This document shows positions 1 through 9,992 of a stretch of DNA of 9,992 nucleotides, piece after piece; the stretch's first letter is position 1; every line of letters starts with the position of its first letter. The stretch comes from a virus. Its lineage: Duplodnaviria > Heunggongvirae > Uroviricota > Caudoviricetes. The notes beneath the pieces are model-generated. The model saw only the letters and a list, made by a program, of their open reading frames with translations, made no database searches and had not been told where the DNA came from. The stretch lies in IMG/VR virus record IMGVR_UViG_2541047787_000003, positions 1 to 9,992 of that record, one strand, 5' to 3'. The position numbers and the translations under genes are program-made.

Positions 1-672
1 ATGGCAGCGACGCACACACTCCCTCTGGCGTCACCGGGCATGGCGCGCATCTGCCTTTACGGGGATTTACAACGATTTGGCCGCCGCATCGACCTTCGTG
101 TGAAAACGGGGGCTGAAGCCATCCGCGCACTGGCCACACAGCTCCCGGCGTTTCGTCAGAAACTGAGCGACGGCTGGTATCAGGTACGGATTTCCGGGCG
201 GGACGTCAGCACGTCCGGATTGACGGCGCAGTTACATGAGGTTCTGCCTGACGGCGCTGTGATTCATATTGTTCCCAGAGTCGCCGGGGCCAAGTCAGGG
301 GGCGTATTCCAGATTGTCCTGGGAGCAGCCGCCATTGCCGGATCATTCTTTACCGCCGGAGCCACCCTTGCAGCATGGGGGGCAGCCATTGGGGCCGGTG
401 GTATGACCGGCATCCTGTTTTCTCTCGGTGCCAGTATGGTACTTGGTGGTGTGGCGCAGATGCTGGCACCGAAAGCCAGAACTCCCCGTACACAGACAAC
501 GGATAACGGCAAACAAAACACGTATTTCTCCTCACTGGATAACATGGTTGCCCAGGGCAATGTTCTGCCCGTTCTGTACGGTGAAATGCGCGTGGGGTCG
601 CGGGTGGTATCTCAGGAAATCAGCACGGCAGACGAAGGGGACGGTGGTCAGGTTGTGGTGATTGGTCGCTGA
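1..672 (+). CDS. I: Tail assembly protein I (lambda gpI-like), complete 223-aa ORF
   Basis: ORF starts at ATG position 1 and ends at TGA 670-672. The translation (MAATHTLPLASPGMARICLYGDLQRFGRRIDLRVKTGAEAIRALATQLP...EGDGGQVVVIGR) matches lambda gpI as I recall it, including the Gly/Ala-rich hydrophobic middle. It sits directly upstream of J, as in lambda. Confidence 0.9.
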   Translation: MAATHTLPLASPGMARICLYGDLQRFGRRIDLRVKTGAEAIRALATQLPAFRQKLSDGWYQVRISGRDVSTSGLTAQLHEVLPDGAVIHIVPRVAGAKSGGVFQIVLGAAAIAGSFFTAGATLAAWGAAIGAGGMTGILFSLGASMVLGGVAQMLAPKARTPRTQTTDNGKQNTYFSSLDNMVAQGNVLPVLYGEMRVGSRVVSQEISTADEGDGGQVVVIGR

Positions 673-690
673 TGCAAAACATTTTATGTG

Positions 691-718
691 AAACCGCCTG
701 CGGGCGGTTTTGTCGTTT
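691..718 (+). terminator. Intergenic I-J stem-loop followed by a T-rich tract (terminator-like hairpin or RNA stability element)
   Basis: aaaccgcc (691-698) pairs perfectly with ggcggttt (703-710) around the 4-nt loop tgcg, followed by tgtcgttt. It lies between two co-transcribed late genes, so it may act only as a partial terminator, pause or processing site. Confidence 0.3.
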
Positions 719-732
719 ATGGAGCGTGAGGA

Positions 733-3700
733 ATGGGTAAAGGCAGCAGTAAGGGGCATACCCCGCGCGAAGCGAAGGACAACCTGAAATCATCCCAGAT
801 GCTGAGCGTGATAGACGCCATCAGTGAAGGGCCGATTGAAGGTCCGGTGGATGGATTAAAAAGCGTACTGCTGAACAGTACGCCGGTGCTGGACAGTGAG
901 GGGAATACCAACATCGCCGGTGTCACGGTGGTGTTCCGGGCTGGTGAGCAGGAGCAGACTCCGCCGGAGGGATTTGAATCCTCCGGCTCCGAGACGGTGC
1001 TGGGTACGGAAGTGAAATATGACACGCCGATCACCCGGACCATCACGTCGGCAAACATTGACCGACTGCGTTTTACTTTCGGCGTGCAGGCACTGGTGGA
1101 AACCACCTCAAAGGGGGACAGGAATCCATCGGAAGTCCGCCTGCTGGTTCAGATACAACGTAACGGTGGCTGGGTGACGGAAAAGGACATCACCATTAAG
1201 GGTAAAACCACTTCACAGTATCTGGCCTCGGTGGTGGTGGATAACCTGCCGCCGCGCCCGTTCAGTATCCGGATGCGCAGGATGACGCCGGACAGCACCA
1301 CAGACCAGCTGCAGAACAAAACGCTCTGGTCGTCATACACCGAAATTATCGATGTGAAACAGTGCTACCCGAACACGGCACTGGTCGGCGTGCAGGTGGA
1401 CTCGGAGCAGTTCGGCAGCCAGCAGGTGAGCCGTAATTATCATCTTCGCGGGCGCATTCTGCAGGTGCCGTCGAACTATAACCCGCAGACGCGGCAATAC
1501 AGCGGTATCTGGGACGGAACGTTTAAGCCAGCATACAGCAACAACATGGCCTGGTGTCTGTGGGATATGCTGAACCATCCGCGCTACGGCATGGGGAAAC
1601 GTCTTGGTGCAGCAGATGTGGATAAATGGGCGCTGTATGTCATCGGCCAGTACTGCGACCAGTCGGTGCCGGACGGCTTTGGCGGCACGGAGCCGCGCAT
1701 CGCCTGTAATGCGTACCTGACCACACAGCGAAAGGCGTGGGATGTGCTCAGTGATTTCTGCTCGGCGATGCGCTGTATGCCGGTATGGAACGGGCAGACG
1801 CTGACATTCGTGCAGGACCGACCGTCGGATAAGGTGTGGACCTATAACCGCAGTAATGTGGTGATGCCGGATGATGGCGCGCCGTTCCGCTACAGCTTCA
1901 GCGCCCTGAAAGACCGCCATAATGCCGTTGAGGTGAACTGGATTGACCCGAACAACGGCTGGGAGACGGCGACAGAGCTTGTGGAGGATACGCAGGCTAT
2001 TGCCCGTTACGGTCGTAACGTCACGAAGATGGATGCTTTTGGCTGTACCAGCCGGGGGCAGGCACACCGCGCCGGGCTGTGGCTGATTAAAACAGAGCTG
2101 CTGGAAACGCAGACCGTGGACTTCAGCGTGGGCGCAGAAGGGCTTCGCCATGTGCCGGGCGATGTTATTGAAATCTGTGATGATGACTATGCCGGTATCA
2201 GCATCGGCGGGCGCGTGCTGGCGGTAAACAGCCAGACCCGGACGCTGACGCTCGACCGTGAAATCACGCTACCATCCTCCGGTACCACGCTGATAAGCCT
2301 GGTTGACGGAAGTGGCAATCCGGTCAGCGTGGAGGTTCAGTCCGTCACCGACGGCGTGAAGGTAAAAGTGAGCCGTGTTCCTGACGGCGTTGCCGGATAC
2401 AGCGTGTGGGGGCTGAAGTTGCCGACGCTGCGTCAGCGCCTGTTCCGCTGTGTGAGTATCCGTGAGAACGATGACGGCACGTATGCCATCACTGCCGTGC
2501 AGCATGTGCCGGAAAAAGAGGCCATCGTGGATAACGGGGCGCACTTTGACGGTGACCAGAGCGGCACGGTGAATGGTGTCACGCCGCCAGCAGTGCAGCA
2601 TCTGACCGCCGAAGTCACTGCAGACAGCGGGGAATATCAGGTGCTGGCGCGCTGGGACACACCGAAGGTGGTGAAGGGCGTGAGCTTCCTGCTCCGTCTG
2701 ACCGTGACAGCGGATGACGGCAGTGAGCGGCTGGTCAGCACGGCCCGGACGACGGAAACCACATACCGCTTCAGGCAGCTGGCGCTGGGGAACTACAGGC
2801 TGACAGTCCGGGCGGTAAATGCGTGGGGGCAGCAGGGAGATCCGGCGTCGGTATCGTTCCGGATTGCCGCACCGGCAGCACCGTCGAGGATTGAGCTGAC
2901 GCCGGGCTATTTTCAGATAACCGCCACGCCGCATCTTGCGGTTTATGATCCGACGGTACAGTTTGAGTTCTGGTTCTCGGAAAAGCGGATTGCGGATATC
3001 AGGCAGGTTGAAACCACAGCCCGCTATCTTGGTACGGCGCTGTACTGGATAGCCGCCAGTATCAATATCAAACCGGGCCATGATTATTACTTTTATATCC
3101 GCAGTGTGAACACCGTAGGCAAATCGGCATTTGTGGAGGCCGTCGGTCGGGCGAGCGATGATGCATCCGGCTATCTGGATTTTTTCAAAGGCGAGATAGG
3201 GAAAACCCATCTGGCTCAGGAGCTGTGGACGCAGATTGATAACGGTCAGCTTGCGCCTGACCTGGCTGAAATCAGGACGTCCATTACGGATGTCAGCAAT
3301 GAAATCACGCAGACCGTCAATAAGAAACTGGAAGACCAGAGTGCGGCAATTCAGCAGATACAGAAGGTTCAGGTTGATACAAATAATAACCTGAACAGCA
3401 TGTGGGCTGTGAAGCTGCAGCAGATGCAGGACGGACGCCTTTATATCGCGGGTATTGGTGCCGGTATTGAGAACACCCCTGACGGCATGCAGAGTCAGGT
3501 GCTGCTGGCGGCGGACAGGATTGCGATGGTTAATCCTGCGAATGGCAACACAAAACCGATGTTTGTTGGTCAGGGCGATCAGATATTCATGAACGACGTG
3601 TTCCTGAAACGCCTGACGGCTCCCACCATTACCAGCGGTGGAAATCCACCGGCATTTTCCCTGACACCGGACGGGCGACTGACGGCGAAAAATGCGGATA

Positions 3701-4212
3701 TCAGTGGCAGTGTGAATGCGAACGCCGGGACGCTCAACAATGTCACGATTAATGAAAACTGTCGGGTTCTGGGAAAACTGTCTGCGAACCAGATTGAAGG
3801 CGATCTCGTTAAAACAGTGGGCAAAGCTTTCCCCCGGGACTCCCGTGCACCGGAGCGGTGGCCATCAGGGACCATTACCGTCAGGGTTTATGACGATCAG
3901 CCGTTTGACCGGCAGATTGTTATTCCCGCGGTGGCGTTTCGTGGCGCTAAACATGAGCGGGAGAATAACGATATTTATTCGTCATGCCGCCTGATAGTGA
4001 AGAAAAACGGTGCTGAAATTTATAACCGTACCGCGCTGGATAATACGCTGGTTTATACAGGTGTTATTGATATGCCTGCTGGTCGCGGTCACATGACGCT
4101 GGAGTTTTCGGTATCAGCGTGGCTGGTAAATGACTGGTATCCCACAGCCAGTATCAGTGATTTGCTGGTTGTGGTGATGAAGAAATCCACAGCAGGTATC
4201 ACGATTAGCTGA
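733..4212 (+). CDS. J: Host specificity protein J (central tail fiber / tip attachment protein), 1159 aa
   Basis: ATG at 733 preceded by an RBS-like ggagcgtgagga. The long ORF translation ([20 protein letters not shown]...[55 protein letters not shown]...) matches lambda gpJ through the N-terminal and central parts as I recall them. Gene order I-J-lom is as in lambda. Confidence 0.95.
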
Positions 4213-4232
4213 ATTTTCATAACCCATATGCG

Positions 4233-4259
4233 GGCGCCATTTCTGGCGCCTTTTTTATT
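4233..4259 (+). terminator. Rho-independent terminator downstream of J (tJ-like)
   Basis: Palindromic GC stem ggcgcca (4233-4239) / tggcgcc (4244-4250) with loop tttc, immediately followed by ttttttatt (4251-4259). It starts 21 nt after the J stop. Confidence 0.7.
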
Positions 4260-4280
4260 GCAGAAAAGCGAGAGGTAATT

Positions 4281-4880
4281 ATGCGTAAAGTTTGTGCAGC
4301 CATTTTGTCCGCAGCCATCTGTCTGGCCGTATCCGGTGCGCCTGCATGGGCGTCTGAGCAGCAGGCCACACTGAGCGCAGGGTATCTTCATGCCCGTACG
4401 AACGCTCCCGGCAGCGATAATCTGAACGGGATTAACGTGAAATACCGTTATGAGTTTACGGACACGCTGGGGCTGATTACGTCATTCAGTTATGCCAACG
4501 CTGAAGATGAGCAAAAAACGCATTACAGCGATACCCGCTGGCATGAGGATTCCGTGCGTAACCGCTGGTTCAGCGTGATGGCGGGGCCGTCTGTGCGCGT
4601 GAATGAATGGTTCAGCGCGTATGCGATGGCAGGCGTGGCTTACAGCCGTGTGTCGACTTTTTCCGGGGATTATCTCCGCGTAACTGACAACAAGGGAAAA
4701 ACGCACGACGTGCTGACCGGAAGTGATGACGCTCGCCACAGTAACACCTCTCTGGCGTGGGGAGCTGGCGTGCAGTTTAACCCGACCGAATCCGTGGCCG
4801 TTGATGTCGCTTATGAAGGCTCCGGCAGTGGCAACTGGCGCACTGACGGGTTCATCGTGGGTGTCGGTTATAAGTTCTGA
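4281..4880 (+). CDS. lom: Outer membrane protein Lom (Ail/Lom family beta-barrel), 199 aa with N-terminal signal peptide
   Basis: ATG at 4281 with RBS gagagg 7 nt upstream. The translation starts MRKVCAAILSAAICLAVSGAPAWA (a signal peptide with an AxA cleavage motif) and ends ...DGFIVGVGYKF with a C-terminal aromatic residue, typical of outer-membrane beta-barrels. It matches lambda Lom as I recall it, in the same position after J. Confidence 0.9.
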   Translation: MRKVCAAILSAAICLAVSGAPAWASEQQATLSAGYLHARTNAPGSDNLNGINVKYRYEFTDTLGLITSFSYANAEDEQKTHYSDTRWHEDSVRNRWFSVMAGPSVRVNEWFSAYAMAGVAYSRVSTFSGDYLRVTDNKGKTHDVLTGSDDARHSNTSLAWGAGVQFNPTESVAVDVAYEGSGSGNWRTDGFIVGVGYKF

Positions 4881-4906
4881 TTAGCCAGGTAACACAGTGT
4901 TATGAC

Positions 4907-4934
4907 AGCCCGCCGGTTCAGGCGGGCTTTTTTG
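4907..4934 (+). terminator. Rho-independent terminator downstream of lom
   Basis: Stem agcccgcc (4907-4914) / ggcgggct (4921-4928) with loop ggttca, followed by tttttgt (4929-4935). It lies between the lom stop and the side tail fiber start. Confidence 0.65.
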
Positions 4935-4944
4935 TGGGGTGAAT

Positions 4945-7900
4945 ATGGCAGTAAAGATTTCAGGTGTACTGAAAGACGGTGCAGGTAAACCGGTACAGAA
5001 CTGCACAATCCAGCTGAAAGCAAAACGTAACAGCACCACGGTGGTGGTGAACACGGTGGCATCTGAAAATCCGGATGAAGCCGGGCGTTACAGCATGGAC
5101 GTTGAGTACGGTCAGTACAGCGTTATTCTGTTGGTGGAAGGATTCCCGCCGTCACATGCCGGGACCATCACCGTGTATGAAGATTCCCGACCCGGTACGC
5201 TGAATGATTTTCTCGGTGCCATGACGGAGGATGATGCCCGTCCGGAGGCACTGCGCCGCTTTGAACTGATGGTGGAAGAGGTGGCGCGTAACGCGTCCGC
5301 AGTGGCGCAGAACACAGCAGCCGCGAAGAAGTCAGCCAGCGATGCCGGCACATCAGCCCGTGAGGCGGCAACCCGTGCGACTGATGCTGCAGGCTCAGCA
5401 CGTGCAGCCAGCACGTCAGCCGGACAGGCCGCGTCGTCGGCTCAGTCAGCGTCTTCCAGCGCAGGAACGGCATCAGCAAAGGCTACTGAAGCATCAAAAA
5501 GTGCTGCCGCTGCAGAGTCTTCAAAAAGCGCGGCAGCCACCAGTGCCGGTGCAGCGAAAACGTCGGAAATGAATGCCGCAGCATCACAAAAATCTGCGGC
5601 CACATCTGCATCCACCGCGACCACGAAAGCGTCAGAAGCTGCCACCTCAGCCCGGGATGCGTCGGCTTCAAAAGTGGCGGCAAAATCATCAGAAACGAGC
5701 GCTGCCTCGAGCGCCGGCAGTGCAGCTTCCTCGGCAACGGCAGCAGGAAATTCCGCGAAGGCCGCAAAAACGTCTGAGACGAATGCGGATAACAGCGCAC
5801 AGGCGGCAGCAGACTCACAAACTGCATCGGCAAACTCCGCGACAGCAGCCAAAAAATCAGAAACCAACGCGAAAAATAGTGAGTCAGCAGCAAAGGTCAG
5901 CGAAACCAACGCTAAAGCGTCAGAGAACAAGGCGAAAGAATATCTCGACAAGGTCGGGGGACTCGTCAGCCCGATGACGCAATACGATTGGCCTGTTGTT
6001 ACTGCTAGTGAGTCTCTTTACATCAAGATCGCGAAACTTTCCGATCCTGGAACCAGCAGAAGTCATGTAACGCTAATGGTTACTAACGCTGGTAACTACG
6101 GCTCCCCTTACGGAAACATTGACTTTATCGAGATCTCGGCGCGCGGTCTGCCTTCTTTGCTTAGTGCGGATAATGTTTCTCGTCATCTGAGTATACGCCG
6201 CTTAGGGTCAACCGGGCTGACCGATAACAACCAGATGCGTTACGGCCTGGTTAAAGGTGACGGCTTTATTGAGGTTTGGGCATTCCAGGGTGCGTTTATT
6301 AACGACGCAAAGGTTGCGGTGCTGGCGCAGACAACACTAAACACAGAATTATACATTCCAGACGGATTTGTTAAGCAAACCGCCGCGCCTTCTGGATATA
6401 TTGAAGGCAACGTTGTAAGGATTTACGACCAGGTAAACAAGCCGACTAAAGCAGATTTGGGTCTTTCTAATGCTATGCTTACAGGCGCTTTCGGTCTTGG
6501 CGGTAGCGGGATATCAACAAACGGCAAGATGAGCGATGTAGAGATCTTAAAAGCTCTGCGTGACAAAGGTGGTCATTTCTGGCGCGGTGATAAGCCGACC
6601 GGAAGCACGGCGACCATTTATAGCCACGGTTCTGGTATATTCTCGCGGTGCGGCGATACGTGGTCAGCGATCAATATCGACTACTCAACCGCGAAGATTA
6701 AGATCTATGCCGGCAACGATGCCCGGCTTAACAACGGGACTTTTAGCGTCAATGAGCTATACGGCTCGGCAAACAAGCCGTCGAAATCGGATGTTGGACT
6801 TGGCAACGTAACGAACGATGCGCAGGTAAAAAAAACCGGCGATACAATGACCGGTGACTTGACAATCAAAAAAGGTACACCGTCAGTCTTCCTGCGGGCA
6901 GACAGTGGAGTCACCGCTTTGCGGTTTTATACTGGCGATAACACAGAGCGCGGCATAATCTATGCTGGTCCTAACACTGATTCGCTTGGCGAAGTTCGCA
7001 TCAGGGCAAAGACAGCAGGGGGGACATCAGGAGGGGATCTTGTTGTTCGTCACGACGGGAGGGTTGAAGTCCGTGATCTCACAGTAGCGTATAAAATTAA
7101 AAGCAGAACGATTGAGATTGCAAATACCGACACTGACTCATCGGCAACTACGCTAAGCATCTATGGAGTACAGCACACGCCGTTGGTTTTAACGCGTTCT
7201 GGTTCTTCTGAAAATGTGTCCATTGGGTTTAAGTTAGACAACATGAACCCAAAGTATCTTGGAATTGATACTAATGGGGATCTGGCTTTTGGTGAGAGTC
7301 CTGATCAGAAACAAAACAGCAAATTGATCACGCAAGCGAAACTCGACAAGGGATTAACGATTGGTGGTCAACTGGCTTTCAAAGGTACGACAGCGTTTTC
7401 AGCCGTTGCTACGTTCAGTGCCGGGATAGCAGGAGCCATCGAGCCGGAAAACATTGACGGCCAGACGGTTAATCTTAACAACCTGACCATCATCAAGTCA
7501 GATGCCGGGGCAGTTAAATACTATATTTGTCCATCCTCTGCAGGTGGTGCAAATATCACCAACAAGCCTGACGGCGTAACAGGTAACTTTTTGCTCCGTG
7601 TTGAATCGACTCGTAAGGTTAGGGATTCAGATTATGCGAACATGCAAACGCTGATTAACAGCGACACAAAACGTATATACGTTCGCTTTGTTGTTAATGG
7701 AAACTGGACAGCGTGGAGTCAGGTTGTTGTTTCCGGATGGAATCAGGATGTAACCGTCAGGTCGTTAACCTCGACGACTCCATCAAAATTAGGTGGCGGG
7801 CGGATTGATGTGCTTGGAAGTACGTCAGATTATGGCAGCATGAATTGTACCGTTCGTGGTGTTGATAGCACTGGAACCAATTCGGCGTGGTCGGTAGGCA

Positions 7901-8724
7901 CATCAGAAAGCACAGGCAAAATGTTGTTCCTGAAAAACCACAGAAGCAGCGCTCAAGTGCTGTTAAATGGCGATGATGGCGCGGTTCAACTACTAAGTGG
8001 CACTGTTAACGGTGCTACAGCGCAGGCGCTAACCATCAACAAAGATGAGGTTAACTCAACTGCCGATTTAGTAATTAGAAAACAAACAGGGACTGGCAAT
8101 CGTTTTGCTTTACTTAATTCAGGTAATTCAGAACTACCAGTTAGTATCAGGGTGTGGGGTTCCAGTACTCGACAAAACGTTTTTGAGGTTGGCACGTCTG
8201 CTGCGTATCTGTTTTATGCGCAAAAAACAACAGACGGGCAAAACCTTACTGTAAACGGAAGTGTTAACTGCACCACACTGAATCAGTCATCAGACCGCAG
8301 ACTGAAAGAAAATATCGAGATTATCGATAACGCGACTGACGCAATCCGCAAAATTAATGGATACACGTACACGCTCAAGGAGAATGGGGCACATTGCGCC
8401 GGGGTTATAGCCCAGGAAGTTGAAGAGGCCATCCCGGAGGCCGTTGGTTCATTCATCCATTACGGTGAAGAGTTGCAAGGTCCGACCGTTGACGGCAACG
8501 AGCTACGCGAAGAAACGCGCTATCTTAATGTTGACTACGCCGCCGTGACGGGCTTACTTGTTCAGTTCGCCCGTGAAACAGATGATCGCGTTACCGCGCT
8601 GGAAGAGGAAAACACAACGCTACGTCAAAATCTGGCAACAGCAGACACCCGGATCAGCACTCTGGAAAATCAGGTAAGCGAACTGGTTGCACTTGTCCGG
8701 CAGTTAACAGGAAGCGAACATTGA
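4945..8724 (+). CDS. stf: Side tail fiber protein, chimeric: lambda Stf-like N-terminus, Ala/Ser-rich shaft, divergent distal receptor-binding region, and C-terminal self-cleaving intramolecular chaperone domain
   Basis: The ORF track calls 4939-8724 from a GTG, but the ATG at 4945 gives MAVKISGVLKDGAGKPVQNCTIQLKA..., which matches the lambda Stf N-terminus as recalled and has a ggggtg RBS upstream. The distal part carries fiber-type motifs (NKPSKSDVGLGNVTNDAQVKKTGDTMTGDLTI). The C-terminus carries the S-D-R-R-L-K-E-N motif and a terminal coiled coil typical of peptidase S74 chaperone domains. Confidence 0.85.
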   Translation: MAVKISGVLKDGAGKPVQNCTIQLKAKRNSTTVVVNTVASENPDEAGRYSMDVEYGQYSVILLVEGFPPSHAGTITVYEDSRPGTLNDFLGAMTEDDARPEALRRFELMVEEVARNASAVAQNTAAAKKSASDAGTSAREAATRATDAAGSARAASTSAGQAASSAQSASSSAGTASAKATEASKSAAAAESSKSAAATSAGAAKTSEMNAAASQKSAATSASTATTKASEAATSARDASASKVAAKSSETSAASSAGSAASSATAAGNSAKAAKTSETNADNSAQAAADSQTASANSATAAKKSETNAKNSESAAKVSETNAKASENKAKEYLDKVGGLVSPMTQYDWPVVTASESLYIKIAKLSDPGTSRSHVTLMVTNAGNYGSPYGNIDFIEISARGLPSLLSADNVSRHLSIRRLGSTGLTDNNQMRYGLVKGDGFIEVWAFQGAFINDAKVAVLAQTTLNTELYIPDGFVKQTAAPSGYIEGNVVRIYDQVNKPTKADLGLSNAMLTGAFGLGGSGISTNGKMSDVEILKALRDKGGHFWRGDKPTGSTATIYSHGSGIFSRCGDTWSAINIDYSTAKIKIYAGNDARLNNGTFSVNELYGSANKPSKSDVGLGNVTNDAQVKKTGDTMTGDLTIKKGTPSVFLRADSGVTALRFYTGDNTERGIIYAGPNTDSLGEVRIRAKTAGGTSGGDLVVRHDGRVEVRDLTVAYKIKSRTIEIANTDTDSSATTLSIYGVQHTPLVLTRSGSSENVSIGFKLDNMNPKYLGIDTNGDLAFGESPDQKQNSKLITQAKLDKGLTIGGQLAFKGTTAFSAVATFSAGIAGAIEPENIDGQTVNLNNLTIIKSDAGAVKYYICPSSAGGANITNKPDGVTGNFLLRVESTRKVRDSDYANMQTLINSDTKRIYVRFVVNGNWTAWSQVVVSGWNQDVTVRSLTSTTPSKLGGGRIDVLGSTSDYGSMNCTVRGVDSTGTNSAWSVGTSESTGKMLFLKNHRSSAQVLLNGDDGAVQLLSGTVNGATAQALTINKDEVNSTADLVIRKQTGTGNRFALLNSGNSELPVSIRVWGSSTRQNVFEVGTSAAYLFYAQKTTDGQNLTVNGSVNCTTLNQSSDRRLKENIEIIDNATDAIRKINGYTYTLKENGAHCAGVIAQEVEEAIPEAVGSFIHYGEELQGPTVDGNELREETRYLNVDYAAVTGLLVQFARETDDRVTALEEENTTLRQNLATADTRISTLENQVSELVALVRQLTGSEH
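5280..5950 (+). repeat. Low-complexity Ala/Ser/Thr/Lys-rich repetitive coding region (fiber shaft) within stf
   Basis: About 220 aa dominated by A, S, T and K with recurring K-x-S-E-(T/M)-N-A units, for example aaaacgtcggaaatgaatgcc, aaaacgtctgagacgaatgcg, aaaaaatcagaaaccaacgcg and aaggtcagcgaaaccaacgct. This explains the many spurious overlapping ORFs called here in other frames. Confidence 0.6.
8293..8721 (+). other. Predicted C-terminal intramolecular chaperone / autoproteolytic domain (peptidase S74-like) of the tail fiber, about 143 aa, released after trimerisation
   Basis: Motif NQSS|DRRLKENIEIID (codons at 8281-8319) has the Ser and Lys spaced 5 residues apart, as in the catalytic Ser-Lys dyad of endosialidase-type chaperone domains. 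It is followed by ...YLNVDYAAVTGLL... and a terminal heptad-like stretch RVTALEEENTTLRQNLATADTRISTLENQVSELVALVRQL. Confidence 0.6.
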
Positions 8725-8907
8725 TATCCTTCAAGCTCTGAAGGAGGCTGTTCCCGGTACGTTCAGACTGTTGTTGAGCTGGAAATCGCAACGGAGGAAG
8801 AAACCTTGTTGCTGGAAGCCTGGAAAAAGTATCGGGTGTTGCTGAACCGTGTTGATACATCAACTGCACCTGATATTGAGTGGCCTACGAACCCTGTCAG
8901 GGAGTAA
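8725..8907 (+). pseudogene. tfa: Remnant of a tail fiber assembly (tfa) gene 3' end, with no start codon
   Basis: The 60 codons immediately after the stf stop, in the same frame, read [60 protein letters not shown]. The ...[25 protein letters not shown]... portion is the conserved C-terminal signature of Tfa-family assembly chaperones as I recall it. There is no ATG/GTG/TTG start in this frame and no N-terminal Tfa domain. Confidence 0.6.
8779..8862 (+). repeat. Direct repeat copy A (tfa 3'-end sequence), partner at 9828-9911
   Basis: ctggaaatcgcaacggaggaagaaa (8779-8803) is identical to 9828-9852. Similarity continues through ...tatcgggtgttgctgaaccgtgttgatacatca, which pairs with ...tatcgggtattgttgaatcgagttgatacatca; by eye roughly 80% identical over about 84 nt. 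Confidence 0.7.
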
Positions 8908-8921
8908 TCATTGGGATTATG

Positions 8922-8954
8922 CCGCAGCACGTCTTAAGCAAGAACGTGCTGCGG
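8922..8954. other. Strong hairpin (11-bp perfect inverted repeat) at the convergent junction between the tfa remnant and the methyltransferase gene; possible bidirectional terminator
   Basis: ccgcagcacgt (8922-8932) and acgtgctgcgg (8944-8954) are exact reverse complements around an 11-nt loop. A T-run (8965-8970) follows on the + strand but overlaps the methyltransferase codons, so it is not a canonical terminator. Confidence 0.4.
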
Positions 8955-8961
8955 TTGGATG

Positions 8962-9630
8962 CTATTTTTTCCCTGAAGCGGAAAACATTACTACAGTACC
9001 TTGAACCTTGGTTTTAACATTCTCGAAATGCTCTGAGAGTATATGTGTTAAGCCTTCTTCGGAATCTTTTGTGTTTGAAAAGATACCTTTCTGATTGTAA
9101 ATGCGCATCAGTTTTTGACCGAAGCTATTGTGCACAACTCCATCGCCAAGAATTGTGGCTCCGTATAGAGTTCCATCGTCAGTTAAGGCCTGCGCCGCAT
9201 TGCGTATTACACAGCATTTTGTAGATATATTTCCAGGCAGGCAGTGAAGAAGGTAAAACATGGAAATGGAATCAAATTGACCATGTAACGCCGCGGGATA
9301 AGGTTCAAAAACATCATGGTTAATTTTATGTTTAATTTTTGATTCCCCAGCCCTTGTAGATGCCGCGTTCAGGCTAGCTTCGTTCAAATCCATTAAAGAT
9401 ATCAGACTACTCTCAGGTACGTGAGTAAGGTAAAACCCAGTTCCAACACCAATATCCAGATGGTTGTTACCTAAATGTTCCAGAAAGTGTGGAAGAAGGT
9501 GTTCCTTTGTAGGACATCCCCATGCAAGCCGATTTGATACTCCCAAAACCCACCAGTCATAAAGCTTTAGGGTAAGTGGTGTGTAAATTTTAGCCCCATC
9601 ATCTGTGTTTTTTTTCATTAATTTCACCAT
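8962..9630 (-). CDS. Class I SAM-dependent methyltransferase, 222 aa, substrate unknown; AT-rich cargo (moron) gene
   Basis: Minus-strand ORF from ATG (9628-9630) to TAG (8962-8964). It has Rossmann-fold methyltransferase motifs: motif I HLDIGVGTGFYL (GxGxG), an acidic residue ending beta-2 (LISLMDLNEAS), and motif II FDSISMFYLLHCLPG. No DPPY/NPPY or PCQ/ENV DNA-methyltransferase motifs were seen. Composition is visibly AT-richer than I, J and lom, and orientation is opposite to the late operon. Confidence 0.75.
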   Translation of the reverse strand: MVKLMKKNTDDGAKIYTPLTLKLYDWWVLGVSNRLAWGCPTKEHLLPHFLEHLGNNHLDIGVGTGFYLTHVPESSLISLMDLNEASLNAASTRAGESKIKHKINHDVFEPYPAALHGQFDSISMFYLLHCLPGNISTKCCVIRNAAQALTDDGTLYGATILGDGVVHNSFGQKLMRIYNQKGIFSNTKDSEEGLTHILSEHFENVKTKVQGTVVMFSASGKK

Positions 9631-9659
9631 GTTATAGTTTTATTTGTGAATTAAATCAA
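9631..9659 (-). promoter_or_regulatory. Candidate sigma70-type promoter for the methyltransferase gene
   Basis: On the minus strand: TTGATT (complement of 9654-9659), a 17-nt spacer, then TATAAC (complement of 9631-9636), immediately upstream of the start. The region is AT-rich so chance matches are likely, and the leader would be very short unless the second ATG (9616-9618, giving MKKN...) is the true start. Confidence 0.25.
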
Positions 9660-9686
9660 TTATGGCGATGAATTACAAGGGGTTAA

Positions 9687-9992
9687 ATGCTGCCGCAGCA
9701 TAGCGATATTGAAATAGCATGGTATGCTTCGATACAGCAGGAGCCGAATGGCTGGAAGACCGTCACCACACAGTTCTACATCCAGGAATTCAGTGAGTAT
9801 ATTGCGCCACTGCAGGATGCTGTAGATCTGGAAATCGCAACGGAGGAAGAAAGATCGTTGCTGGAGGCATGGAATAAATATCGGGTATTGTTGAATCGAG
9901 TTGATACATCAGTAGCTCTGGGTATGAAGCTGTTTGTAACTCATGTTACAGTAACAGCCATTACTATCTCGAAGGTGCAAAATGTATATTGA
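9687..9992 (+). CDS. Small Tfa-like protein (tail fiber assembly C-terminal motif with divergent tail), 101 aa; possibly a truncated or alternative tfa
   Basis: ATG at 9687 with RBS aagggg 5-6 nt upstream; stop TGA at 9990-9992. The translation contains ...[29 protein letters not shown]..., homologous to the Tfa C-terminal signature, but then diverges ([26 protein letters not shown]) and lacks the terminal APDIEWP motif. It is too short for a full Tfa. Confidence 0.5.
9828..9911 (+). repeat. Direct repeat copy B (tfa 3'-end sequence), partner at 8779-8862
   Basis: See copy A. The 25-nt core ctggaaatcgcaacggaggaagaaa is identical, with flanking similarity to ...gttgatacatca. Confidence 0.7.

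Follow-up and report, generated by a model that had tools for sequence, protein, structure and literature searches.

Tandem tfa ends around a ybcY-type methyltransferase gene: a probable exchange point for phage cargo

Introduction

The DNA considered here comes from a lambda-like prophage of the DLP12 type and covers its tail end, with genes I, J, lom and stf. It comprises 9,992 nucleotides (nt), positions 1 to 9,992 of IMG/VR virus record IMGVR_UViG_2541047787_000003, and we refer to the whole of it as the window. Downstream of the side tail-fibre gene, stf, lies an accessory gene for a S-adenosylmethionine (SAM) methyltransferase of the ybcY type, and on each side of this gene, in the same orientation, lies the 3' end of a tail-fibre assembly gene, tfa. 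The locus is the intact-phage version of tfaD-ybcY-tfaX in the Escherichia coli K-12 prophage DLP12, an arrangement that is already annotated. We think it likely, with a probability of about 0.85, that the shared tfa block acts as an exchange point: recombination inside it would swap the flanks, and would add or remove the ~1-kb cassette that holds the methyltransferase gene. The features on which this reading depends are these:

8762-8907, plus strand: tfa 3' remnant, copy 1, about 48 codons (from translation, PF02413, and blastn boundaries against the tfa genes of K-12, Turner and O157)
8764-8862, plus strand: direct repeat copy 1, 99 nt (repeat search)
8962-9630, minus strand: class I SAM-dependent methyltransferase, 222 amino acids (aa) (Pfam Methyltransf_12, Methyltransf_23)
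9687-9992, plus strand: chimeric, tfaX-like open reading frame (ORF), 101 aa (tblastn against phages, Pfam, translations of relatives)
9780-9916, plus strand: tfa-derived part of copy 2 (blastn against full-length tfa genes and K-12)
9813-9911, plus strand: direct repeat copy 2, 99 nt (repeat search), with its core at 9828-9852

The two tfa ends

The repeat search finds one family of direct repeats, the 99-nt pair listed above, with a spacing of 1049 nt and an identity of 84%; a scripted count gives 83 matches in the 99 positions. Outside the repeat, similarity in register drops to chance level on either side. Compared with each other by blastn, within a 25-kb locus carrying the window sequence, the copies match with E = 1.5e-25, and so chance is not the explanation. 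An earlier note on this DNA had described a repeat of ~84 nt at 8779-8862 and 9828-9911, with an identical 25-nt core, a Tfa C-terminal motif encoded in direct orientation in both copies, and the methyltransferase gene between them. It had the coordinates right, except that the repeat reaches 15 nt further left. The core, CTGGAAATCGCAACGGAGGAAGAAA, is indeed the same at 8779-8803 and 9828-9852; translation and matches to PF02413 recover the motif from both copies; and the gene between them is the 222-aa, minus-strand methyltransferase gene. The alignment that the note proposed as a check, now carried out, extends the homology well past the core, to the full 99 nt.

Copy 1 lacks a start codon; it begins 38 nt past the stop codon of stf, and its homology to K-12 tfaD begins at 8762 (blastn). 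It matches PF02413 (Caudo_TAP) with 72.7 bits (cutoff 22.1; E = 4e-20) over profile positions 86-130 of 131, and the ORF of copy 2 matches the same profile with 65.1 bits (same cutoff; E = 9e-18) over positions 75-121. Both cover the C-terminal third of the profile only. The 101-aa ORF is Tfa-like at residues 27-77; for residues 1-26 and 78-101, tblastn against 50,697 phage records found relatives at this locus only. Past the Tfa motif it continues VALGMKLFV..., and it is broken in K-12 by an in-frame TGA and in phage 2G7b by a frameshift, for which reason it probably specifies no functional protein. Judged by their sequence, both copies are remnants of tfa genes, neither having the full-length domain and intact reading frame of a functional Tfa.

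The earlier note had offered, as an alternative, that two tail-fibre modules were joined in tandem with most of one tfa deleted, and copy 2 fits the idea of such a deletion. It is a 5'-truncated remnant: window 9780-9911 matches full-length tfa genes at 86-88% (blastn), and in relatives such as strain SFE8 the same tfaX-type tail closes, as is normal, a complete and intact tfa, with appY directly downstream. At its right edge, 9916/9917, the tfa part joins a flank that encodes an alpha/beta hydrolase followed by ompT. Its left edge, at ~9780-9790, is the putative illegitimate joint behind the tandem arrangement.

Might the similarity simply reflect the conservation, in two functional genes, of a motif at the protein level, with no bearing on recombination? 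The motif is widespread, being conserved in many Tfa proteins, including those of lambda, P2-like phages, APSE and P1. We nevertheless find this explanation very improbable. Copy 1 is a 48-codon remnant that lacks a start; the ORF of copy 2 is a chimera, disrupted in two relatives; and natural genomes carry hybrid junctions, described below. In addition, the stf gene upstream encodes a chaperone of its own. This protein (1,261 aa) has a prophage tail-fibre domain at its N-terminus (PF08400, E = 5e-72) and a Peptidase_S74 intramolecular chaperone domain at its C-terminus (PF13884, E = 3e-16; Pfam), and since it ends in this way it should need no Tfa.

The two copies, 84% identical to each other, are each 97-99% identical to their own counterparts in other genomes. 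They represent different tfa alleles, therefore, and did not arise by recent duplication in place.

A constant module between differing flanks

Window 8762-9916 is collinear with MG1655 582.0-583.1 kb, and 96.97% identical to it over 1,155 nt (blastn). The K-12 genes, tfaD (b0561), ybcY (b0562) and tfaX (b0563), have the order and orientation seen in the window, but they sit in a cryptic prophage beside appY and ompT. The methyltransferase gene is intact in the window (222 aa) whereas ybcY is a pseudogene. The left tfa in the window is a remnant behind an S74-type stf, and in K-12 it is the nearly full-length tfaD. To the right of 9916 the window continues into the hydrolase gene, whereas K-12 has a normal tfa tail and then appY; homology to K-12 stops at 9916, and the appY neighbour is not shared. 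A genome identical to the window over 8600-9992, in which the methyltransferase is annotated WP_000239871.1, carries a DLP12-type prophage integrated at argU, followed by the hydrolase gene and ompT. Phages 2G7b and Turner have this same right flank.

The locus is common. Of 5,426 complete E. coli genomes, at least 2,493 carry 80% or more of 8600-9992, and the locus occurs, too, in phages 2G7b, ev243, PhiR26_1, PhiR29_1, PhiR29_2, PhiR30_1 and PhiR49_1.

Pairwise blastn and translations of ten related loci show what is constant and what is not. The tail after copy 1, the hairpin that follows it, the methyltransferase gene, and the DNA ahead of copy 2 (9631-9812) are constant in every carrier. 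To the left of copy 1, sequences differ, and homology begins between 8762 and 8807. This flank is an S74-type stf in the window and in AR435, near-full tfaD in K-12, an unrelated gp25 in 2G7b, and a recombinase fragment in H105. The stf gene is the left-flank module of the present phage; phages mEp460 and Ayreon share the joint between an S74 end and a tfa remnant, as do several hundred E. coli genomes. To the right of copy 2, sequences differ again, and homology stops at 9911-9916. The tail reads VALGMKLF... and leads to the hydrolase gene and ompT in the window; it reads VAPDIEWLIQP and leads to appY in K-12; AR435 has a tail of its own, then attR and potB; and H105 has its own tail and a second hairpin, the repeat there extending to ~190 nt at 89%. 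The right-hand part of copy 2 covaries with the right flank. Carriers occupy three attachment sites: argU, ompW/trp and potB.

A side observation concerns this right-hand boundary. In O157:H7 F8492 (L007, 7091-9440) an insertion sequence (IS) of the IS66 family, ISEc8, sits exactly at the end of the tfaX block and duplicates window 9910-9918; its position is the point at which K-12 and the window diverge.

Genomes that lack the cassette

Complete E. coli genomes were searched with synthetic junction queries composed of a left flank, the 25-nt core and a right flank. Queries of 885-951 nt matched cassette-bearing genomes as joined pieces; counts for the S74/potB and tfaD/appY contexts come from queries of 700 nt. 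We called a genome cassette-less when it matched in one piece, full length, and had no methyltransferase gene. By this measure 24 complete genomes lack the cassette, and in all three flank contexts in which they occur a single hybrid tfa end links the outer flanks. Six have the S74/hydrolase context (CE0026a, KMi025, STEC306, STEC307, STEC308 and Eco_23-3571), against 14 with the cassette; nine have the S74/potB context, and nine the tfaD/appY context. In the annotation of eight of these loci, stf is followed by a single tfa or tfa remnant, and this directly by the right-flank genes.

Single-nucleotide polymorphisms (SNPs) indicate where the hybrids were joined. When hybrids are phased against both copies from cassette-bearing genomes of their own context (96-127 informative sites per genome, 0-2 of them discordant), they are of copy-1 type up to a point inside the repeat and of copy-2 type beyond it. 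These switch points occupy about three distinct intervals, given here in copy-1 coordinates:

8779-8803, plus strand: the core and first switch interval (CE0026a, KMi025, WGI31CT)
8830-8841, plus strand: second switch interval, TATCGGGT(GTTG) (STEC308, GTEN_24, Res13-Lact-PER13-34; SNP phasing)
8848-8885: third switch interval (MIN10)

The hybrid full-length tfa of WGI31CT shares the in-frame TGA of K-12 tfaX. About three switch intervals, all in register and without insertions or deletions, point to homologous recombination rather than to a site-specific or illegitimate kind. The earlier note had proposed that the repeats would permit the cassette to be deleted, or exchanged between prophages, and had asked whether related genomes show it present or absent precisely between tfa ends. 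The comparison bears the proposal out: the cassette is present or absent exactly there in all three contexts, and the switches lie within the repeat.

Movement of the cassette by a site-specific recombinase or a transposase, with the repeats as recombination sites or as a target-site duplication, is largely refuted by the same evidence, and we give it hardly any credence. Pin/Cin-type invertases do lie beside tfa in some relatives (Turner, and as fragments in H105 and M505), but in the window neither a recombinase nor a transposase is encoded between the repeats or next to them (ORF list, Pfam). The repeats are 99-190 nt long and 84-89% identical, unlike a target-site duplication, and crossovers occur at about three intervals rather than at a single fixed site. 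Gin/Pin-family invertases are known to act on inverted sites at the junction between the constant and variable parts of stf, not on direct repeats in tfa 3' ends. Two specific forms of this explanation were rejected: an IS or transposon cassette with a target-site duplication, there being no transposase in 8725-9992 and the repeats being 99 nt at 84%; and an invertible tail-fibre segment of the Gin/Cin/Pin kind, the copies being direct and invertases being present in some relatives only, not in the window.

A more serious alternative, if still an unlikely one, is that the tfa ends are passive scars: that the cassette-less genomes never acquired the cassette, and that the hybrids are merely allelic variants of tfa. 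The tandem arrangement did require an illegitimate joint, at ~9780-9790; SFE8 has a distinct, intact tfa allele with a tfaX-type tail; and the same switch intervals recur in different contexts. Against this, each hybrid matches copy 1 of its own context on the left and copy 2 of its own context on the right, at ~100 informative sites with 0-2 discordant, and the context-specific SNPs agree, as does, in WGI31CT, the nonsense codon of K-12 tfaX. Moreover, even if these genomes never had the cassette, its presence in register in three contexts still demands crossovers within the tfa block.

Two genomes were set aside. JNE132847 (H112), considered as a tandem duplication or reciprocal product, has an ordinary full-length tfa, the cassette, and tfaX, the matching pieces being joined through the repeat. 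PRO_A-1478, considered as cassette-less, proved to have IS3 inserted between its tfa remnant and the methyltransferase gene.

How the cassette might come and go

Exchange within the tfa block accommodates these results in the following way. The arrangement would have originated once, when a non-homologous joint at ~9780-9790 fused the DNA upstream of the methyltransferase gene to codon ~137 of a resident tfa. Thereafter the conserved tfa block could serve as a portable homology arm, either within one genome or between collinear lambdoid genomes, and recombination in it would swap the tail-fibre module on the left or the downstream arm on the right, or remove or add the ~1-kb cassette. An incoming tfa end that recombined with copy 1 would leave the cassette in place and swap the tail-fibre arm; because lambdoid genomes are collinear, a single crossover at copy 1 should suffice for this. 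An incoming single tfa end that recombined with copy 2 would give a cassette-less recombinant with a hybrid tfa end, and an intramolecular crossover between the copies would delete the cassette outright. The earlier idea that the cargo arrived, or is retained, by homologous recombination between tfa ends is thus supported, by the natural hybrids and by the constant module with its variable flanks. Each cassette-less genome could represent a loss, a state in which the cassette was never gained, or an alternative crossover product.

The enzymes we infer to be at work are, probably, phage recombinases of the Red/RecT type, which tolerate ~12-16% divergence, or RecA. Short homologies between phages and defective prophages, among them diverged ones in the stf/tfa genes of Rac and Qin, are joined chiefly by lambda Red and other Rad52-like recombinases, and a divergence of 12% reduces the frequency of recombination only ~100-fold (De Paepe et al. 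2014, PMC3945230). The natural hybrids described here resemble such products, with the difference that those exchanges were measured, in lambda and phi80, whereas these are known from the comparison of genomes (De Paepe et al. 2014, PMC3945230).

Several points weigh against exchange within the tfa block as the whole account. One junction query, tfaD on the left with the hydrolase gene on the right, finds zero cassette-less genomes among the complete E. coli genomes. Cassette-less genomes are rare in any case: 24, as against ~680 occupied genomes in the same three contexts, the latter figure being obtained by subtracting the cassette-less genomes from the query match counts and including many laboratory derivatives of K-12. 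Over the 5.4 kb leftward, CE0026a and the window share only 94% identity, and so CE0026a is no recent deletion derivative of the present phage. Recombination between the copies should itself be rare, because the runs of identity are short (25 nt, and 8-12 nt). Some cassette-less genomes could be ancestral, instead; the third, intact tfa allele of SFE8, which has the tfaX-type tail, may show how the locus looked before the cassette arrived. The same two switch intervals occur in three contexts, and the hybrids could in part be shared alleles rather than independent events—contrary to which, their right-hand SNPs are context-specific in each case. Since the tfa homology of copy 2 starts only at ~9780-9790, one non-homologous joint would have been needed to build the tandem arrangement.

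Relatives, too, add to the points of this kind. Phage Ayreon has lost the methyltransferase gene by a deletion of ~660 nt, from 8998 to ~9658 (L005, 5381-5411), with a few bases of microhomology at its ends, by a route independent of the tfa repeats. The deletion keeps the last 36 nt of the coding sequence; Ayreon then shares 9657-9773 and continues into unrelated DNA, with no tfa part of copy 2. In Turner and in O157:H7 F8492 homology to the cassette begins at 8916-8922, and other cargo separates tfa from the methyltransferase gene: an invertase and small ORFs in Turner; catalase and ferritin-like genes and an IS in O157. Because of this intervening cargo, the methyltransferase gene does not in every case directly adjoin the left tfa end.

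The methyltransferase gene and its expression

The methyltransferase matches Methyltransf_12 with 37.1 bits (cutoff 30) and Methyltransf_23 with 29.7 bits (cutoff 27), which places it among the class I SAM-dependent enzymes. It corresponds to PHROG 2132, a family of unknown function (E = 1e-155), and has weak matches among solved structures to UbiG and to juvenile-hormone-acid methyltransferases (E ~2e-3). Its matches in NCBIfam and PADLOC are weak or generic, the only one in PADLOC being mad2 (E = 0.0025, 14.7 bits). No DNA methyltransferase family appears among its Pfam and NCBIfam matches, and no defence model matched it. The predicted enzyme is most likely a small-molecule or protein methyltransferase, carried as lysogenic-conversion cargo.

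Two features adjoin the gene:

9631-9686, no strand: divergent spacer, 56 nt, between the methyltransferase gene and the tfaX-like ORF (consensus scan)
8921-8955, no strand: stable hairpin that separates the 3' end of the methyltransferase gene from the tfa remnant (-28.6 kcal/mol, z = -3.67, for the fold of 8905-8980)

The gene is transcribed backwards, from its own putative promoter region. The spacer includes, on the minus strand, a promoter-like site, TTAACC-16-CATAAT (9686-9659), by consensus match only. In K-12, genomic SELEX (systematic evolution of ligands by exponential enrichment) places an RpoD site and H-NS binding in the spacer between ybcY and tfaX (PMC3946193).

The hairpin was considered as a terminator and rejected: no run of U follows it directly on either strand, and a terminator scan of 8650-9992 is silent, finding no canonical intrinsic terminator. 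Its base, 8916-8922, is a recurring mosaic joint, the point at which the homology to Turner and O157 starts, with unrelated DNA leftward. A 10-nt direct repeat, TGCCGCAGCA, at 8920-8929 and 9691-9700 also brackets the methyltransferase gene, and its left copy lies at this same joint; with ~0.7 such repeats expected by chance, by a rough estimate, it may mean nothing.

Other cargo at the same position

The position after stf and the tfa remnant is a general cargo hotspot, of which ybcY is one occupant. Past the same S74 stf and tfa remnant, two strains have defence-like cargo in place of the methyltransferase gene: M505 (L012, 4609-8470) has genes for a TIR-domain protein and a reverse transcriptase, and BS90R-A (L013, 4648-8504) has genes for a GIY-YIG nuclease, a Dcm methyltransferase and a type II restriction enzyme. 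In mEp460, dinI and int occupy this position, and in O157 the catalase and ferritin-like genes do.

Turner (L004, 3354-3944) and H105 (L008, 1845-4130) have a Pin-type invertase gene or an inverted tfa'-stf' pair with a truncated recombinase gene, respectively situated between a functional tfa and the methyltransferase gene. Remnants of an invertible tail-fibre segment therefore lie in the same interval.

Decay is seen as well. In K-15KW01 (L010, 3909-5232), a degraded DLP12 remnant, the methyltransferase gene is frameshifted and tfaX is deleted; homology stops at window 9716, and ompT follows directly. The upstream tfa of this strain has an internal deletion that ends within the repeat block, at window 8791.

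Relation to known systems

The mechanism, phage mosaicism through conserved tfa ends, is a standard one, and the locus is the known K-12 arrangement; what is new is that the presence or absence of the cassette has been mapped explicitly to crossovers inside the repeat. Conserved 3' regions of tfa and U genes reportedly act as exchange points in tail-fibre mosaics, according to Haggard-Ljungquist et al. in 1992 and Sandmeier in 1994. Here, too, mosaic joints cluster where the tfa block begins, at 8762-8807, and where it ends, at 9911-9916. The difference is that two blocks in tandem enclose cargo unrelated to the tail, and the outcome is the presence or absence of this cargo, not a change of host range.

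Morons, which are autonomous cargo genes with a promoter and a terminator of their own, and other exchangeable cargo lie past the tail-fibre genes of lambdoid phages, as in the lambda b region, and enterohaemorrhagic E. coli are said, by Tobe et al. in 2006, to have exchangeable effector loci there. The present locus is similar in that one position, after an S74 stf and tfa remnant, holds cargo that differs from strain to strain. Cargo of the ybcY type has, additionally, a second tfa end on its right, and hence homology arms on both sides.

Does the cassette, then, carry these arms as its own means of transport, able to enter or leave any lambdoid phage that bears a tfa? We are doubtful. If it does, the arms would explain why it is found at no fewer than three attachment sites and in almost half of E. 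coli genomes, and the tfaX remnant would have been retained for mobility, rather than merely having not yet decayed. Were this general, conserved fragments of structural genes would form a recognizable class of mobility signal for phage cargo.

Leaving that proposal aside, exchange within the tfa block makes the locus a natural example of cargo shuffling among phages, with switch points mapped to within 8-40 nt in complete genomes. A conserved gene fragment of ~100-150 nt, 84-89% identical between copies, would be the exchange point. The locus also explains two long-standing K-12 annotations: tfaX is the 3' end of a once-complete tfa, and ybcY is cargo between two tfa ends. For the annotation of prophages, tfa remnants mark the boundaries of modules in the cargo region past the tail fibres, and this is a region that holds defence genes in other strains. 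The locus leaves the current understanding of phage mosaicism unchanged.

Neighbouring features

The ORF list and Pfam matches identify the window as the right-hand end of a late operon of the lambda kind, and the tail genes in it are intact:

1-672: tail assembly protein I (ORF list/Pfam)
733-4212: tip attachment protein J (ORF list/Pfam)
4281-4880: Lom (ORF list/Pfam)
4939-8724, plus strand: side tail fibre, stf (Pfam)

Within the region ahead of copy 2, the Prokaryotic Genome Annotation Pipeline (PGAP)/RefSeq labels ~9705-9784, on the minus strand, as a frameshifted, C-terminally truncated gene of the DinI family in AR435 and PRO_A-1478 (L009, 5075-5154, and L011, 6719-6798); the label is not confirmed for 9705-9784, tblastn with two phage DinI proteins having produced nothing significant.

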